Origin: an uncultured Acidobacteriota bacterium
GTDB taxonomy: Bacteria; Acidobacteriota; Thermoanaerobaculia; Gp7-AA8
NCBI GenBank assembly: GCA_963741955.1
Contig: CAVUKB010000005.1
Span: 1,216,001-1,280,000, forward strand
Direction: 5' to 3'
DNA: 64,000 nucleotides
Shown piece after piece: positions 23,034 through 31,065 of this stretch. The translations under genes were made by a program, and so were the position numbers. The notes under the pieces are model-generated. The model ran no database searches. It had not been told where the DNA came from and saw nothing but the letters and a program-made list of their open reading frames with translations. How positions within the stretch are numbered: position 1 is the first letter of the stretch; the number at the start of each line of letters is the position of its first letter.

Positions 23034-23229
23034 CATACGCACTAACTTTTGCCTTTCTCGTGAGTGCACAGCCCTGTGAATCGGGTCGGCAACGACGAAT
23101 GCAGAATGCAAAATGCAGAATTGAGAGCTGAGAAGAGACCCCAGCCCTTCTTCATTCCGAATTCTGAACTCTGCATTCTGCATTCGTCGGGCGATGGCTT
23201 CACTTCGCTCCTCAAAGTTTGTGCGCATG
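23034..23229. mobile_element. Putative MITE (~196 bp) within a (GGGGGTC)n tract
   Basis: Terminal IR CATACGCACTAACTTT / AAAGTTTGTGCGCATG (14/16 match). Internal perfect 18-bp IR at 23093-23110 / 23172-23189. GGGG on both flanks. Confidence 0.55.
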
Positions 23230-23305
23230 GGGGTCGGGGGTCGGGGGTCGGGGCTCAGGGGTCAGGGATCAGGGGGTCAAGCCTCGAGCCTCGAGCCCGC
23301 ATTTC

Positions 23306-24442
23306 TCACACGGTGGCGCCGCCGCACGAGCTCCCTGCGCCAGCGGTACAGCCGAAGCAGTGCCGGCGCGTCACGATGCGGCGGTTCTGCCAGAGGTCGA
23401 AATCGAAATCGCGAATGTGCATCGCTTTCCCGTCGGGGAGTGCATCGAGGTCGAGCATCTGGTTGAAATCGCAGTCGTACAGCCGGCCGTCCCAGGAGAT
23501 GGAGATCGTGTTCCGGCACATCAGCCCGTCGATGGCGGCCGGATTGAAAGAGATCCCGAGTTTTTCCATGTAGTCCTCGAGATTTCCCGAGTCGACGAGC
23601 CACTCGAGAAAGCGCGAGATCGGCATGTTGTTCAGGGCGAAGAGACGGTCGAAGCTCACTTCGAGATCTCGCTGGAGTGCAGTCTTCCACTCCTTCTCGA
23701 TCGAGAGCTGGTTCGGAGCGAGGTAGGCGCCCGCAGGATTCATCATCAGCGTGAGAATGCGGCGAGGGTCGCCTTTTCCATAGCCTGCCTCGTTCAGGAG
23801 CCGGAGGGCGGCGATCGATTTCTCGAACGCTCCGTCGCCGCGTTGCGCGTCGGTGTTGCGCTTCCGGTAGTGAGGGAGCGAAGCGACGACCTCGACTCCT
23901 CGGTCGCCGAGCCACTCCACGAGTCCGCGGCTGCGCGGGAGGAGGAGAACGGAGAGATTGCAGCGGTCGATCACGTGCTTGCCGCGGGCGACCGACTCTT
24001 CCACCACCCGGCGGAACTCGGGATGGAGCTCCGGAGCGCCACCGGTCAGATCGACGGTGTGGGCGGTGCTGCGGTCGAGAGCACGGAAGCAGTCGTCGAT
24101 GGTCTCGGCCGACATCATGGCGTCCCAACGGTCGGGACCGGCGTCGACGTGGCAATGGCGGCAGGTCATGTTGCAGAGCTTCCCGAGGTTGATCTGAAAG
24201 ATCTCCAGCATCGAGGTCCGGAGTCCGCTGCGTCCCGATTCCGCGATCGCCTTCTCGAAATCAAGGGATGACCCCGACTCGAGCGAGACGGCGGCGAGGA
24301 GCTCCAGCTGTGTCGCGGGGGTGGCGAGCGGGGAATGACGTGAGCGAAGGGTGCGTGCCGACCGCGGTCCGGGAATCGACTCTTCCCGCGGATCGCGTTC
24401 CTCCGGAGCTTCGCGGATGGATGCCGGGGTGAGGTTCTTCAC
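23306..24442 (-). CDS. arsS: ArsS-type radical SAM protein (arsenosugar biosynthesis / TIGR04167-like)
   Basis: QINLGKLCNMTCRHCHVDAGP, DLTGGAPELHP, LMCR, YDCDFNQML and HCFGCTAGAGSSCGG motifs. GTG start overlaps the upstream stop. Confidence 0.9.
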   Translation of the reverse strand: MKNLTPASIREAPEERDPREESIPGPRSARTLRSRHSPLATPATQLELLAAVSLESGSSLDFEKAIAESGRSGLRTSMLEIFQINLGKLCNMTCRHCHVDAGPDRWDAMMSAETIDDCFRALDRSTAHTVDLTGGAPELHPEFRRVVEESVARGKHVIDRCNLSVLLLPRSRGLVEWLGDRGVEVVASLPHYRKRNTDAQRGDGAFEKSIAALRLLNEAGYGKGDPRRILTLMMNPAGAYLAPNQLSIEKEWKTALQRDLEVSFDRLFALNNMPISRFLEWLVDSGNLEDYMEKLGISFNPAAIDGLMCRNTISISWDGRLYDCDFNQMLDLDALPDGKAMHIRDFDFDLWQNRRIVTRRHCFGCTAGAGSSCGGATV

Positions 24443-24777
24443 ATCCCTGCCTTTCGGGCGTGCTCCATCATCTGCATCCCATGGACGAGCGAGGCGCCGC
24501 CGCGGATCGCACAAGCGACGTGGACCGCTTCGGTCATCTGCTCGAGGTCCGCTCCCTTCTGCAGACTCTCGGTCGTGTACGCGTCGATGCAGTACGGGCA
24601 CTGGACCGCGTGCGCAACGGCCAGCGCGATCAGTGCCTTCTCACGCTCGGTCAGGGCTCCGGCCGCAAAGACTGCGCCGTAGTAGTCGAAGAACTTCTTC
24701 GCGAGATCGCCCGATCCCTCCGCGATGTCGCCGAACTTCGCGAGATGGTGCGACTTGTAGTAGTAGTGCTCGTCCAC
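24439..24777 (-). CDS. AhpD/CMD-like peroxidase-related protein associated with ArsS
   Basis: REKALIALAVAHAVQCPYCIDAY and AIRGGASLVHG motifs. GAAGGAG RBS. Confidence 0.9.
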   Translation of the reverse strand: MDEHYYYKSHHLAKFGDIAEGSGDLAKKFFDYYGAVFAAGALTEREKALIALAVAHAVQCPYCIDAYTTESLQKGADLEQMTEAVHVACAIRGGASLVHGMQMMEHARKAGM

Positions 24778-25041
24778 GCTCGTGCTCCTTCTCTGAATGC
24801 GATGCGCTCATTCTAGCCCGGATGGACGCGCACCCCCCCGGCCAGACGGTTCGTGACCGGAACGTCATGGGCGATCCGATGCACTGTTCGATGCAGAGGA
24901 ACGGGAGGAGGTGACGGGGGGGGGCGAGTCCGCCTCGTTGCGCCGCAACACCGCCGGTTGGCGCGGTGCCGCTCCACTGCGATTCCGACTGGCGCGCGGG
25001 CGCTCCGCTGCAACACCGAGTAGCGTCACGCCCATGAAAGG

Positions 25042-25073
25042 TGCTATCATCATTTCGGGAGTTTACGAAATGA
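25042..25073 (+). promoter_or_regulatory. Extended -10 element and putative ArsR operator overlapping the arsR start codon
   Basis: TGcTATCAT at 25042-25050. Inverted repeat TCATTTCG-N8-CGAAATGA at 25050-25073. Confidence 0.7.
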
Positions 25074-25507
25074 CGAACCGCCCTCTGACTCGACTGGTCC
25101 GGATGCACAAGTCGCTCGGACATCCGGTCCGCCTTCGCATCCTGGCCATGCTCCGCGGAGGTCCGCTCTGCGTCTGCCAGATGACGGGAGTGGTCCGTCT
25201 CGCCGCTTCCACCGTCTCCGAACATCTATCGGAGCTTCGGCGGGCGGGCCTGATCGCGGAGCGGAAAGACGGGAAGTGGGTGGAGTACCGGCTCGCCGAC
25301 GACCCGGTCGCCGGACAGGTGCTCGAAGCGATCTGGTCCGAGCTCGACCGTGATCCGGAGGCCCAGGCGGACGCCGTCGTTCTGCGGGAGTTGCGCCGCG
25401 TCCCGCTCGAGGAGCTTTGCGGCGCCGGTCTCGATCTCGAGCGGATCGAGCGTCCGGGACTCGGAAAAGCGGTGGCGAGAGCGGCCCGTCTTCGCGACGG
25501 TGCGTGA
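25070..25507 (+). CDS. arsR: ArsR/SmtB family repressor
   Basis: LGHPVRLRIL, PLCVCQM (As(III)-type Cys pair), STVSEHLSELRRAGLI and GKWVEYRL motifs. Confidence 0.9.
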   Translation: MTNRPLTRLVRMHKSLGHPVRLRILAMLRGGPLCVCQMTGVVRLAASTVSEHLSELRRAGLIAERKDGKWVEYRLADDPVAGQVLEAIWSELDRDPEAQADAVVLRELRRVPLEELCGAGLDLERIERPGLGKAVARAARLRDGA

Positions 25508-25514
25508 GGCGACC

Positions 25515-26573
25515 ATGAGCTCTGCTTCCTCCATCCCGCATCCCGCGCCTGCCAGCCGCCCCGCCCCACGCCGGCGACTCGTCGTCGGGATCGGAGCCGC
25601 CATCGGAGGTGTCGCGCTCTATCTCGCTCTCCCTTCGATCACTCAGTTCATCGCGTTCACGCTTCTCCCACTCTCCCCTTCTTCCCATCTCGGCGCGGCG
25701 GTCGCGTTCTTTCTCTTCGAGGTGCCGAAGGTTCTCCTCCTCCTCACCGGAGTGGTCTTCGTGGTCGGCCTCCTCCGCTCGTTCTTCTCTCCCGAGCGTG
25801 CGCGTCGCCTCCTTTCCGGACGCCGCGAATCGACCGGAAACGTCCTCGCCGCCGTGCTGGGTATCGCAACGCCGTTCTGCTCCTGCTCCGCCGTCCCCCT
25901 CTTCATCGGATTCGTCACCGCGGGGGTTCCGCTGGGCGTGACGCTTTCATTCCTCATCGCCGCTCCGATGGTCAACGAGATTGCGCTGGTTCTCCTGTTC
26001 GGTCTCTTCGGCTGGAAGATCGCCGCACTCTATCTCGCGACCGGTCTCGCGATCGCGATCGTCGCCGGATGGATTCTCGGACGGATGAAACTCGAGCGCT
26101 TCGTCGAGCCGTGGGTGTGGAAGATCGACTCCGGCGGCGAGACGCCTCTCGAGAAGAGCTGGAGCGAGCGATTCGCCGAAGCGCGCGCGGCGGTGCGTGA
26201 GATCGTGGGGAAGGTCTGGATCTACGTGATTGCAGGCATCGCGGTCGGCGCCGGGATCCACGGGTTCGTGCCAACCAACTTTCTCGCCTCGTTCATGGGC
26301 CGTGACGCGTGGTGGGCCGTCCCGGCCGCGGTGATTCTCGGCGTCCCGATGTACTCGAACGCCGCAGCCATTCTTCCGATCGTCCAGGCGCTGCTCGGCA
26401 AGGGAGCGGCGCTCGGCACATCGCTCGCCTTCATGATGTCCGTGATCGCCCTCTCGCTTCCGGAGATGATCATTCTCCGGAAAGTTCTCCGCCCGCGGCT
26501 CATTGCTGCCTTCATCGGCGTGGTGGCCGCCGGCATCCTGTTGGTCGGATATCTGTTCAACATAGTCTTGTAA
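25515..26573 (+). CDS. arsP: ArsP/DUF318 family permease
   Basis: TPFCSCSAVPLFIG, GVPMYSNA and ALSLPEMIILRKV motifs. Confidence 0.88.
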   Translation: MSSASSIPHPAPASRPAPRRRLVVGIGAAIGGVALYLALPSITQFIAFTLLPLSPSSHLGAAVAFFLFEVPKVLLLLTGVVFVVGLLRSFFSPERARRLLSGRRESTGNVLAAVLGIATPFCSCSAVPLFIGFVTAGVPLGVTLSFLIAAPMVNEIALVLLFGLFGWKIAALYLATGLAIAIVAGWILGRMKLERFVEPWVWKIDSGGETPLEKSWSERFAEARAAVREIVGKVWIYVIAGIAVGAGIHGFVPTNFLASFMGRDAWWAVPAAVILGVPMYSNAAAILPIVQALLGKGAALGTSLAFMMSVIALSLPEMIILRKVLRPRLIAAFIGVVAAGILLVGYLFNIVL

Positions 26574-26602
26574 ACGCGCATTCACTATTAAAGGAGATAC
26601 CG

Positions 26603-26848
26603 ATGAAGATCGAAGTTCTGGGGCCGGGATGCACCCGCTGCAAGGAAACGTTCCGCGTCGTTCAGCACGTCGTGGAGAATGAGCACCTCGTCGCCGAGGT
26701 GGTGAAGGAGGAATCGGTGGAACGGATGCTCGGTCTCGGCATCATGTCCACTCCCGCGATCGCGATCGACGGAAAAGTCGTCCTCACCGGCCGGGTCCCG
26801 AAGGCGGAAGAGGTGCGGGAGCTCCTCGGGTGCGCCGCAGCACTGTGA
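26603..26848 (+). CDS. Small redox-active disulfide protein (MTH895-like thioredoxin)
   Basis: AAGGAG RBS. MKIEVLGPGCTRC and GIMSTPAIAIDG motifs. Confidence 0.92.
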   Translation: MKIEVLGPGCTRCKETFRVVQHVVENEHLVAEVVKEESVERMLGLGIMSTPAIAIDGKVVLTGRVPKAEEVRELLGCAAAL

Positions 26849-27264
26849 CGAAGCGTCGGGTACTCTTTCTCTGCACTCACAATTCCGCACGGAGCCAGAT
26901 GGCCGAGGGGCTGCTGAGGGCGCGCGCGGGCGAGCGGTTCGAGGTGGCGAGTGCGGGAACCGAGCAGACTCGCGTCCATCCACTCGCCGTGCGCGCGATG
27001 CAGGAGATCGGTATCGACATCTCCGGCCAGGAGTCGAAGACGCTCGATCGGTTCGTCACCGAACCGTGGGACCTGGTGATCAAGGTCTGCGACGCGGCGA
27101 ACCAGTCGTGCCCCGTCTTCCCCGGCGCTGCGAGCCGGCTGCACTGGAGCTTCGAGGATCCTTCTGCCGCGCAAGGGTCGGACGAAGAACGCCTCTCGCT
27201 CTTCCGTCGCGTCCGCGATGAGATCGCCCGGCGCCTTCGCGAGATTGCAGGCGAGAGCGCATAG
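26845..27264 (+). CDS. arsC: Thioredoxin-coupled arsenate reductase (LMW-PTP fold)
   Basis: LFLCTHNSARSQMAE, VCDAANQSCPVF (all three Cys present) and HWSFEDP motifs. GTGA overlap with the upstream gene. Confidence 0.92.
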   Translation: MTKRRVLFLCTHNSARSQMAEGLLRARAGERFEVASAGTEQTRVHPLAVRAMQEIGIDISGQESKTLDRFVTEPWDLVIKVCDAANQSCPVFPGAASRLHWSFEDPSAAQGSDEERLSLFRRVRDEIARRLREIAGESA

Positions 27265-27433
27265 CGAACTGATCTGAGGTGGTTCCCGCCTCTGACGCTG
27301 CGGAAGCAGGCTTGTCCTGTCGATGCCTCCGTGGTTGACAGACGTCCTTGGCCGATACGGCTATCTCGCTCTCTTCGTCGGGGTATTTCTGGAGAACGTC
27401 GGAATACCGGTCCCCGGAGAGACGGTGCTCCTC

Positions 27434-27612
27434 GCCCGCATTGCTCACACCATCTCTGCTGCGGAGCCGGATAGCGGCCTGTCTGTTGCGTTGAGCCCCG
27501 CTTCGGCTCCTCAACATAGTCACCACTATGCCTTCGTCGCCGAAGCGGGGCGCGCCTTGCATCCAGGCCACTCTCCGCCTCCTCGCGACGAGATGGTGTG
27601 AGCAATGCGGGC
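27434..27612. mobile_element. MITE-like hairpin element 1
   Basis: Perfect 23-bp terminal IR GCCCGCATTGCTCACACCATCTC. CTCG at both junctions. Inner 13-bp perfect IR. Apex CATAGT-cacc-ACTATG. Confidence 0.85.
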
Positions 27613-27779
27613 TCGCGGGGTTCTTTGCACGACGGCACGTTCTCGAGTTGCAGTTCGTCATTCCGATCGCGATCGCTGCGGCGATCGCCGGAGACAATCT
27701 CGGATTTCTGATCGGAAGGCGTGCGGGGCGCGCACGCATCGAACAGGGCCGGCGTTTTCTCTGGGTGACGAAGCGACGA

Positions 27780-27946
27780 CCAGGAGTCTGCGCGGTAGAA
27801 ACTGTCCTACTGCGAAAGCGGATCAGCGGTCCAAATCCGTCCGGATTTTCGGCGAGTAGCCACCGCTACGCACCTCAAATCCGAACGAATTTGGCCTCGC
27901 TGCTCGGCTTTCTCGCTACGGACGTTTCTACCGCGCAGACTCCTGG
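27780..27946. mobile_element. MITE-like hairpin element 2
   Basis: Perfect 23-bp terminal IR CCAGGAGTCTGCGCGGTAGAAAC. Imperfect pairing throughout. Apex GTAGC-cacc-GCTAC. Confidence 0.85.
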
Positions 27947-28324
27947 ACCGCGTCGATCGCTACTTCGAACGCTTCGGCTCCTGGACGATCTTCTTCGCCC
28001 GATTCATCACCGGCATCCGCGTCGTCATCGCCGTCTCGGCGGGGATGAGCGGCTTCCGCTGGAGGCGGTTCGTCCTCTGGAACGCGGCCGGTGCAATCGC
28101 CTGGGGAAGCGCAATCGCATCGATCGGATGGGCGTTCGGTCAGTCGTGGCACCTTCTGGAACGTGATGTCGGTCGCGGAGGACTCATCGCGGCAGGCGCC
28201 GTGGTCGCCCTGGCCGCCGCCGCGTTCTTCGTTCATCGGTGGAAGACGAAACGCGAGTCCGTGTCGACGCGCGGAACCGGGCGATGAATTACAATTCGCG
28301 CACCATGGGAATGGAGATGCGGCG

Positions 28325-28914: not shown

Positions 28915-30387
28915 TCACGGCTGCGCGATCGCCGAAGGAAGTTTGACCGGCATTCCTGCCGGCGGAGGCGTGGTCGGGTCGAAGCCGTTGATGTTCGCTA
29001 CCGCTTTCGCGTCCTTCGGGTTGCCCGTCGCGGCGCGGGCGAGGTCGCTCCAGCTCTCGCCACGTCGCACGTTCCGGACATCGAGACGCGGAGGGGCGAC
29101 CGCCCGGGCCTTCGTCAGGTCTTCGGTCGTATTCTCGAGAATCGTGCCGAGAGGGCTCTGCGTTCGCGAGACTCCTCCCGGTGTGATGAACATGAAGACC
29201 GCGACGTGGTCACCGTGGGGGAACTGCGTGGTCTCGACGCCCACCGGCCCGCTTTGGGTCTGACCGGTCCAGACGTCGATCGGGAACCGCTGGCCCGAGC
29301 GCGTCGACGCCTCCCGGGAGCCGACGTAACGCAGACCCATCTGCTGGAGCTTGGAGCGGATCGCGTCCTGCGCGTTCCGTCCCTGCAGATTCTTGTTCTC
29401 GACTTCCTGAGCCACGAAATTCGCTCCGGAGCGATTCGAATTCGGCTCCATGGCGAAGAGCAGGCCGGGTTGCGTCACCGGCTGCCATCCGGAAGGTGCG
29501 CGAATGATCAGGCCGTGCTCGCGGTCGTAGATCGTGCCGTCGCGGATCACCACTCGCTGGGTGCTGTTGCCGGTGATGATTCCGTCCACGAGAGGCACAT
29601 ACCGCGCGCGGACCGGTTCGTCATAGTTTCCGATTCCCTCGGCTCGGAGCTGCTGGACTTCATTTTTCACGTCGCGAACGCGTTTGGCCGGATCGGGATG
29701 GGACGCGAAGTAGCGGTCGACCGGTGAGCTGGGACCGGTATCCATTCGCGCGAGCGTCATCAGCATCCGTTCCGATCCGATGGGGTTGAATCCGGACTCG
29801 GCGACGTACTTCGTGCCGATCCGATCGGCCTGAGACTCCTGCGAGCGCGAGTACTTCTGAAACAGGAGCTGCAACCCGACTTGAGCAAGCTGCCCGTACT
29901 GCTGCGCCGCCTCGGGTCCCGCGACGACGGCGCCGAGCACGAGGCCGAACTGCGCGAGCTGGCTCCGCGAGATCTGCTCGGCTGCATGCCGCGCGGTGAC
30001 GTGAGTGATCTCGTGTCCGAGGACTCCCGCCAGCTCGTCATCCGAGTTGATCCGCTCGAGCATTCCGCGGGTGATGTAGACGTAGCCCCCCGGGAGCGCC
30101 ATCGCATTGACCATCGGCGTGTCGAGAATCGTGAAATGCCACGGAAGATTGGGCCGGTCGGAGTTCGCTGCGAGTCTGGCCCCGACTTCCTGAACCCGGC
30201 GCGTGAGCTCGGGCTTTTCGGTGTAGACGCCGAATTCCTGCTCGACCTGCTGATGGGCCTGGCGGCCGATGGCGATCTCCTGCTGCTCGGAGACGATGTT
30301 GAATTCACGCTTACCCGTCGCGGGGTTGGTGCTGCAGCCGGCCACCACGACGAGAGCGAGCAGTAAAGTGAGTGAACGTTTTTTCAT
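28915..30387 (-). CDS. M48 family metalloprotease lipoprotein with C-terminal LysM-like segment
   Basis: Lipobox VAGC, then STNPATG. NAMALPGG, ELAGVLGHEITH, ESQAD and SHP motifs. C-terminal VRRGESWSDLA...ANING. Confidence 0.92.
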   Translation of the reverse strand: MKKRSLTLLLALVVVAGCSTNPATGKREFNIVSEQQEIAIGRQAHQQVEQEFGVYTEKPELTRRVQEVGARLAANSDRPNLPWHFTILDTPMVNAMALPGGYVYITRGMLERINSDDELAGVLGHEITHVTARHAAEQISRSQLAQFGLVLGAVVAGPEAAQQYGQLAQVGLQLLFQKYSRSQESQADRIGTKYVAESGFNPIGSERMLMTLARMDTGPSSPVDRYFASHPDPAKRVRDVKNEVQQLRAEGIGNYDEPVRARYVPLVDGIITGNSTQRVVIRDGTIYDREHGLIIRAPSGWQPVTQPGLLFAMEPNSNRSGANFVAQEVENKNLQGRNAQDAIRSKLQQMGLRYVGSREASTRSGQRFPIDVWTGQTQSGPVGVETTQFPHGDHVAVFMFITPGGVSRTQSPLGTILENTTEDLTKARAVAPPRLDVRNVRRGESWSDLARAATGNPKDAKAVANINGFDPTTPPPAGMPVKLPSAIAQP

Positions 30388-30558
30388 CTCATCCTCGTGC
30401 CCGCCATACGGTGCAACTGAAGTGCCGGAGAGGAGATGCGCTCCTCGAAATGCCTTCGTCCCGGCCCTTCCGCTGCTCGCAAAGCGGGAGCTCGGCGATG
30501 CGGACCCTCTCCCGAGGGGACTCCTGGCCCGCAGCAGGGACGGCGTGAGCAATCCGGG

Positions 30559-31065
30559 CTAATCGTTGGGGCGCCGGTACTCGCCGCTCTTCCCGCCCGA
30601 TTTCCGTTCGAGCTGGATGCGTTCGATCACGATCCCTTTTTCGACCGACTTGCACATGTCGTAGATGGTCAGCGCGGCCACCGAGCAGGCAGTCATCGCT
30701 TCGATCTCGACCCCCGTACGCGCTTCGCAACGGACGGTGGCTTCGACCGCGATCACGCCGGCGGCGTCGTCGACGGCGAATGAGACGTCGATCGAATCGA
30801 GCGGCAGCAGATGCGTCAGAGGAATCAGCGACGGAGTCCGCTTTGCGGCGAGGATCCCGGCGACCTTTGCGACCGCGAGCACATCGCCCTTCGGAAGCGC
30901 CTTCCGCTGCAGCAGCTCGATCGTCTCCCGGGAGAGACGAACGCGCGCCGACGCCACGGCTTCTCGCCGTGAGACCGGCTTGGCGCCCACGTCGACCATG
31001 GAGAGATTCCCATCCGCATCGAGGTGGCTCAACTCTGCCGGTTGCCGTTTACGTGAGCGGTTCAT
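30559..31065 (-). CDS. moaC: Cyclic pyranopterin monophosphate synthase
   Basis: LSHLD...MVDV, KGDVL, AAKRTPSLIPLTH, TGVEIEA, LTIYDMCK and KSGGKSG motifs. Confidence 0.95.
   Translation of the reverse strand: MNRSRKRQPAELSHLDADGNLSMVDVGAKPVSRREAVASARVRLSRETIELLQRKALPKGDVLAVAKVAGILAAKRTPSLIPLTHLLPLDSIDVSFAVDDAAGVIAVEATVRCEARTGVEIEAMTACSVAALTIYDMCKSVEKGIVIERIQLERKSGGKSGEYRRPND

Follow-up and report, generated by a model that had tools for sequence, protein, structure and literature searches.

Does a dedA gene that carries two different hairpin-forming inserts within its coding region still give rise to a functional protein, or is it simply dead? The gene in question encodes a DedA/VTT-domain membrane protein and lies at 27323-28287 (+) of a 64,000-nucleotide stretch of contig CAVUKB010000005.1 (hereafter the window, that is, the whole stretch of DNA that was analyzed). 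An earlier interpretation, made from the letters alone (the sequence-only reading), had proposed either a recent double inactivation by mobile hairpins at a hotspot or, more speculatively, that the inserts are removed or skipped by precise excision, RNA processing or ribosomal bypass. [quoted passage not shown] Both inserts are non-autonomous transposons; they do not represent a novel class of intervening sequence that can be removed.

Two inserts split dedA over three reading frames

The coding sequence of dedA is found in three pieces in frames 2, 0, and 1 (Table 1), and alignment with seven DedA homologues places these pieces collinearly on one full-length protein. Pieces 2 and 3 both match the Pfam domain VTT_dom (PF09335); piece 1, which is 37 aa long, matches no Pfam domain when searched alone. 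With piece 3 as a query against longer proteins, 11 DedA-family proteins were retrieved at E ≤ 0.001 among 2912 candidates. Identity to full-length homologues is 46-65% for piece 3, and 49-57% between the joined protein and its best homologues.

Table 1. Position and description of the features at the dedA locus (window coordinates)
Feature	Coordinates	Strand	Description
arsC, LMWP type	26830..27264	+	Pfam LMWPc 3.1e-20; ends 58 nt before dedA
dedA piece 1	27323..27434	+	Frame 2, MPPW...PGETVLL; aligns to the N-termini of seven DedA homologues
Target duplication CTCG, left copy	27431-27434		Last 4 nt of dedA piece 1
Insert 1 (e1)	27435..27611		177-nt fold-back MITE, probably of IS1380 (ISMaq4-like) type; terminal inverted repeat CCCGCATTGCTCACACCATCTC
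Target duplication CTCG, right copy	27612..27615		Read from sequence
dedA piece 2	27612..27781	+	Frame 0, LAGFFARR...WVTKRR; Pfam VTT_dom 1.4e-4; homologue alignment
Insert 2 (e2)	27782..27944		163-nt fold-back MITE, IS1182 (ISKpn6-like) type; terminal inverted repeat AGGAGTCTGCGCGGTAGAAAC
dedA piece 3	27945..28287	+	Frame 1, ...DRVDRYFERFGSW...TGR*; Pfam VTT_dom 2.4e-10

The insertions add 181 and 163 nt, both of which leave a remainder of 1 on division by 3, and each insert thus shifts the frame by +1. This had been stated in the sequence-only reading and is confirmed. Its deletions and junction peptides were likewise reproduced by script. When 163 nt are taken out at insert 2 and either 181 or 178 nt at insert 1, the result is a DedA protein of 206 or 207 aa with no internal stops. 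If exactly the inverted-repeat spans (179 and 167 nt) are cut out instead, the frame is not recovered and three stops remain. In the sequence as it stands, the start-to-stop open reading frame (ORF) from the dedA start codon (27323-27601) enters insert 1 and terminates at a TGA at 27599-27601, and the resulting 92-aa product consists of 37 DedA residues followed by 55 from the element. A predicted ORF of 212 aa starts inside insert 1 and is a read-through artefact. For annotation purposes, the locus should be labelled as a dedA pseudogene with two MITEs, and the predicted 92-aa and 212-aa ORFs are artefactual.

Both inserts possess perfect terminal repeats of 22-23 nt and contain only short internal frames and no transposase ORF. 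The terminal repeats of each occur exactly twice in the 64-kb window, at the element's own ends, where none would be expected by chance. With a longest common match of 8 nt, the two inserts are indeed unrelated in sequence, as had been claimed.

Insert 1 resembles IS1380-family elements

The inverted repeats of insert 1 (27434-27456 and 27590-27612) are 23 nt long and 100% identical, and the element folds into a near-perfect hairpin (-126.7 kcal/mol, z -11.0 relative to shuffles). The boundaries of both inserts were refined by comparison with full-length insertion sequences (ISs). For insert 1 this results in the layout CTCG-CCCG...CGGG-CTCG, in which a total of 181 nt has been added.

The end of insert 1, CCCGCATTGCTCAC, is identical at 11/14 positions to the ends of ISMaq4-like elements of the IS1380 family, CCCGGATTTCTCAT, while variant ends in the window reach 12/14. 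The ISMaq4-like element that was scanned scores 394.7 bits with NF033539 (cut-off 180), and full-length copies on four plasmids are all (4/4) flanked by a 4-bp CTAG duplication. Moreover, at a Halomonas locus discussed below, an IS1182 element adjoins an element of this ISMaq4-like IS1380 type. Given the position of the shared end on the ISs, the length of the duplication and the identical neighbourhood, a chance resemblance is unlikely, and insert 1 is probably an IS1380-type MITE. With the ISMaq4-type ISs it shares ends of the form CCCG.ATT.CTCA and a 4-bp target duplication of the CTNG type. Unlike them, it is 177 nt long, lacks a transposase, is an almost complete palindrome and is flanked by CTCG rather than CTAG. 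In the literature, no statement was found on target duplications of IS1380 or ISKpn6; what is said here about 4-bp duplications and, below, about CT...AG flanks is based on our own reading of the loci.

Contigs were also scanned with a degenerate version of the insert 1 end that incorporated the rarer variant ATTGCTCAC, whereas most copies carry ATTTCTCAC. The scan gave 15 single hits in many phyla, the window's own copy not being among them; they include one true MITE of 173 nt in a contig of a Rhodocyclaceae metagenome-assembled genome (MAG) (L013, 10002-10174). This MITE is flanked by CTCG and CTAG and has an interior unrelated to that of insert 1. Its left end equals the 18-nt insert 1 end GCCCGCATTGCTCACACC and fits the scan pattern at 20/21 positions, and its right end has 4/21 mismatches. 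Ends of the e1 type are thus also used in Betaproteobacteria. Seven other hits (L001, L002, L004-L006, L009, and L014) were rejected as false, as by eye they share a conserved coding context, ...TDGVSNAG..., which we take to be that of vWA-type proteins. The remaining seven of the 15 had no partner repeat within 5 kb.

Insert 2 carries the ends of IS1182-family elements

Insert 2 has inverted repeats of 49 nt (27780-27828 and 27898-27946) that are 82% identical, and it too folds into a near-perfect hairpin (-112.5 kcal/mol, z -12.2 relative to shuffles). It is flanked by CC...GG, and a target duplication is absent. Its 163 nt are exactly the length that, on removal, restores both frame and protein length.

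Whole-element blastn searches of both inserts against plasmids gave no match at E ≤ 0.001, and relatives among the ISs were reached only by plasmid searches with short ends at E ≤ 10, which for the end of insert 1 returned nothing useful. When the query was limited to the initial 33 nt of insert 2, the plasmid matches begin at the third base. Three full-length elements have the 21-mer AGGAGTCTGCGCGGTAGAAAC as the repeat at their two termini: a 1583-bp element on a Halomonas plasmid, encoding an IS1182 transposase (NF033551, 369 bits; cut-off 270), with 20/21 identities at the left and 18/21 at the right end; a Marinobacter element of 1472 bp whose transposase is split (21/21 and 19/21); and an annotated 1542-bp copy of ISKpn6 (18/21 and 18/21). 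All three (3/3) are flanked by CT...AG, flanks that might just as well represent a duplication of TA. ISKpn6 is an element of 1540 bp with a TA duplication. The e2-type end also corresponds to the ISKpn6 end adjoining blaKPC-2 on a Klebsiella pneumoniae plasmid (L018), and its 22-mer occurs in more than 2000 plasmid records, from enterobacterial plasmids; this is known biology.

Insert 2 has the same end repeat as the IS1182-family ISs and, if their CT..AG flanks are not a TA duplication, would also share with them the lack of a target duplication and the short palindromic flanks (CC..GG in dedA). Unlike them, it measures 163 nt, has no transposase and has an unrelated interior. IS1272, a member of the same family, inserts at inverted repeats or stem-loops without target duplication, according to the part of PMC5678879 consulted, and is reported to replace its target stem-loop. 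In dedA, by contrast, the target has been neither deleted nor replaced, as removal of 163 nt restores the reading frame. The reconstructed empty site folds into a hairpin of modest stability (-10.1 kcal/mol, a value reached by 2.8% of 500 shuffles), with the insertion point at its centre. Together with the stem-loop targeting described for IS1182 relatives in that same excerpt of PMC5678879, this hairpin is in line with the hotspot envisaged in the sequence-only reading, although nothing marks dedA as a special target.

Additional copies of both elements

Further copies were sought in protein collections with the open frames of the elements as queries, since gene callers sometimes translate such copies. 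The counts are lower bounds, as a copy is visible only where the gene caller translated it in the queried frame. Copy positions were obtained by placing each protein on the six-frame translations of the elements.

The search with the insert 1 frame yielded three proteins at E ≤ 0.001 among 11 candidates, 80-86% identical across all 60 residues. They are arginine-rich, spurious ORFs without Pfam domains. Two of the three are located on a contig of 1,466,178 bp, taken to be the window's own (ORF P0015), and the third on a contig of 705,193 bp. Copies of insert 1 are found in P0012, P0013 (two copies), P0014, and P0023, at 84-89% amino acid identity, and P0012 additionally contains a variant copy.

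For insert 2, an exhaustive search gave eight hits at E ≤ 0.001: the window itself, P0016 (93%), P0017 (97%), and five tandem-repeat proteins of 23-44% identity that were set aside as unrelated. An additional copy (89%) was found in P0023 by a word-based search. P0016 is a cytochrome c whose ORF continues through insert 2 directly after the Pfam domain, and P0017, from a MAG labelled Thermoanaerobaculia bacterium, is a DUF4259 protein with insert 2 at its end.

Three of these proteins combine e1, e2 and other repeats in a mosaic. The order is [short e2-like end][e1][e1-like variant] in P0012, and [AT-rich hairpin similar to window 23093-23189][e1]...[second e1] in P0013; in P0023 the right half of e1 is directly followed by e2. 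Counting copies had been suggested in the sequence-only reading as a check on its proposal. Other copies do exist, in non-coding mosaics or at the 3' ends of genes, but none lies in the middle of a conserved ORF. Both inserts are thus MITEs that occur in several copies and end in the repeats of established IS families, and the evidence bears out the double inactivation by mobile hairpins that had been proposed. The divergence among copies (3-16% at the amino acid level) dates the families, not the insertions in dedA.

Inactivation versus removal of the inserts

The sequence of events that best fits these observations can be outlined as follows. An IS1380-family transposase, supplied in trans by this genome, would recognize the CCCG... 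repeats of insert 1 and make a 4-bp staggered cut at the target CTCG, leaving the duplication on both sides and adding 181 nt. Insert 2, as an IS1182-type element that would likewise be mobilized in trans by a transposase encoded in this genome, would enter the centre of the palindromic CC^GG within a small inverted repeat, adding 163 nt without a duplication. Translation of dedA would run into insert 1 and end at the TGA at 27599-27601. Whichever insertion came first would presumably have killed the gene, making the second cost-free, and the rest of dedA would be undecayed because both events were recent.

Several observations weigh against this scenario. No transposase of either family is present among the 44 window ORFs scanned, and the similarity of insert 1 to IS1380 ends spans only about 14 nt. 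The dedA codons outside the inserts contain no stop or frameshift, and the conserved stretches PGET, GDN, and RFxxGxR are intact, which is also what a gene still in use looks like. Additionally, two mismatches appear when the inserts are removed as transposon biology predicts. Without the 181 nt of insert 1, the protein reads PGET-VLL-AGF, with three residues between the motifs, while the spacing from PGET to AG[F] is four residues in 9/11 homologues examined, the motif being undetected in the other two (a regular expression counted four in eight homologues and miscounted P0009, which by eye also has four). Either a codon was lost earlier in this lineage or 3 nt were removed by the insertion. 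Without insert 2 at its IS-defined ends, the protein reads KRR-P-DRV, and 7/7 close homologues have Leu in that column; a shift of one or two bases in the register of removal gives Leu. The argument from the reading frame is unaffected by the spacing and by the Pro/Leu mismatch.

The intactness of dedA outside the inserts is likewise what would be expected of a reversible switch at the DNA level, in which the hairpins are precisely excised, by a cognate transposase or by replication slippage, such that dedA is off in part of the population and on in the rest. Insert 1, a near-perfect hairpin between 4-5-bp direct repeats CTCG(C), even has a geometry favouring slipped-strand deletion, a process described for hairpins with direct repeats in the portion of PMC4134008 consulted. 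However, both inserts must leave, and as insert 2 is flanked by a direct repeat of at most 1 bp, slippage would rarely restore the frame. Moreover, excision of insert 1 at its duplication yields a protein one residue shorter than its homologues, and the excerpt of PMC5678879 describes IS1272-type insertion as irreversible. We consider such a switch quite improbable.

Each hairpin also brings the flanking codons together, and at insert 1 a ribosome could take off from and land on identical codons, as CTC is present at both 27431 and 27612. The inserts might be skipped after transcription, either because ribosomes bypass them, the mechanism of T4 gene 60 and mitochondrial byp elements, or because the RNA is processed and re-joined at the hairpin bases. 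As in gene 60 and in Magnusiomyces byp, the dedA inserts are mobile hairpins in an ORF that becomes readable once they are skipped, with identical codons at the edges of insert 1. Mitochondrial byp elements measure 27-55 nt. The features of gene-60 bypass, as given in the part of the source consulted (10.1101/2022.08.31.505936), are matched take-off and landing codons, a stop or hungry codon after take-off and a gap of about 50 nt. In dedA, in contrast, the codons after take-off are GCC and CCA, with no stop or rare codon, and the gaps (181 and 163 nt) are 3-4 times longer. At insert 2, none of the frame-restoring landing codons (CTC 27940, CTG 27943, and GAC 27946, in frame 1) equals the take-off codon CGA, and the CTC/CTC match at insert 1 is a by-product of the target duplication. 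Rfam gave no match at gathering score across the 64 kb, and hence no intron or ribozyme family; below threshold, only look-alikes of plant microRNA precursors appeared (43.7 bits versus 268 and 30.1 versus 100). The location of the other copies, outside the interior of ORFs, also argues against skipping, which we regard as scarcely credible.

Excision, RNA processing and bypass, as put forward in the sequence-only reading, thus found no support: the copies do not lie inside conserved ORFs and most of the bypass features tested fail. That dedA is alive, with the elements removed on demand from the DNA or skipped at the level of RNA or ribosome, appears very improbable. If it were true, MITE hairpins would reversibly switch a gene for membrane homeostasis that is appended to an arsenic operon.

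Another comparison is with the Rickettsia palindromic elements (RPEs), which are also palindromic repeats within protein-coding genes. RPEs sit in-frame in genes, keep the frame and are translated. The dedA inserts differ in that both shift the frame and that insert 1 has a TGA (27599) in the incoming frame.

The hairpins could also have been introduced during assembly, the real genome having an intact dedA, as the window probably stems from a metagenome-assembled contig and repeats are a classic source of mis-joins. However, both inserts are complete with paired ends, insert 1 lies between two clean copies of its 4-bp target, and on either side of the inserts the gene carries on in order; a mis-join would not yield two complete elements in one collinear gene. 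An artefact of this kind is extremely unlikely. Even when all these alternatives are added together, they remain unlikely, and inactivation of dedA by two MITEs is the preferred explanation.

Association of e1-type and e2-type ends

The ends of the two elements recur side by side. In P0023, in P0012 (where the junction was deduced from amino acids) and in an intergenic remnant in the window (30520-30559), e1 and e2 ends lie two bases apart (...GCGGG CC AGGAGTC...), and the same arrangement is found on a Halomonas plasmid as ...CCGGG CT AGGAGTC.... At this latter locus (Halomonas sp. KO116 plasmid, L017, 1439-4583), an ISMaq4-like IS1380 element is flanked by a CTAG duplication, and the IS1182 element sits within the right-hand copy. 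A related Vreelandella sulfidaeris plasmid (L020) shares this IS1380 insertion but lacks the IS1182 element, indicating that the latter came second at the Halomonas locus. This suggests that IS1182-type elements enter a site that IS1380-type elements duplicate, a short palindrome of four bases located where their own hairpin has its base. If this tetranucleotide is the entry site of IS1182-type elements, the association of the two ends would follow. In dedA, the duplication CTCG is non-palindromic, and insert 2 was inserted 167 nt further on.

The remnant in the window is composite (30500-30559): it consists of an e2-type right end, GACTCCT, followed by GG and a 31-nt mini e1 (CCCGCA...GGCGTGAGCAATCCGGG). 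It is located between the start of an M48 peptidase gene near 30387 and the stop codon of moaC (30559-30561), and causes the longest peptidase ORF to start about 55 codons too early. An alignment of insert 2 to the remnant over 30400-30535 was weak (score 35), and only the terminal GACTCCT beside the e1-like piece is claimed.

Genomic surroundings of dedA

As had been stated, dedA directly follows arsC, and in the 58-nt gap between them (27265-27322) no terminator-like site was found. Upstream on the same strand are genes encoding an ArsR-type regulator, an ArsP_1 permease, a Thioredoxin_3 protein and the LMWP-type ArsC, and a GNAT acetyltransferase gene follows dedA. The latter is the last gene of an arsR/ArsP-permease/thioredoxin/arsC cluster. 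In the arsenic cluster (23306-27264), radical-SAM/DUF3641 and CMD-family genes are located on the minus strand, divergent from arsR, and no ArsB or Acr3 pump was found among the window ORFs scanned. The remaining window has ordinary chromosomal content.

MITE-disrupted genes, the ends of IS1380-family and IS1182-family elements and stem-loop targeting by IS1182 relatives are already known. A full-text literature search, at the level of its listings, found no description of MITEs of Thermoanaerobaculia or Acidobacteria, the name Thermoanaerobaculia occurring in none of the papers listed, and at that level neither these elements nor the lineage that hosts them seem to have been described. The present locus adds IS1380-type and IS1182-type MITE families in an uncultured lineage, probably Thermoanaerobaculia.

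Other repeats in the window

A solo e1-type end in the commoner variant, GCCCGCATTTCTCACAC, is located at 23295-23311, with 16/17 positions identical to insert 1. The radical-SAM/DUF3641 gene (23306-24601, minus strand) terminates in a stop codon that overlaps with it. In its vicinity, a third hairpin repeat of 97 nt is found at 23093-23189 (GAATGCAGAATGCAAAATGCAGAAT...), followed by G-rich tandem repeats of the GGGGTC type (23219-23290). The 97-nt hairpin is AT-richer, and its translation resembles the N-terminus of P0013 beside the e1 copy in that protein; it looks like a further member of the same repeat mosaic.

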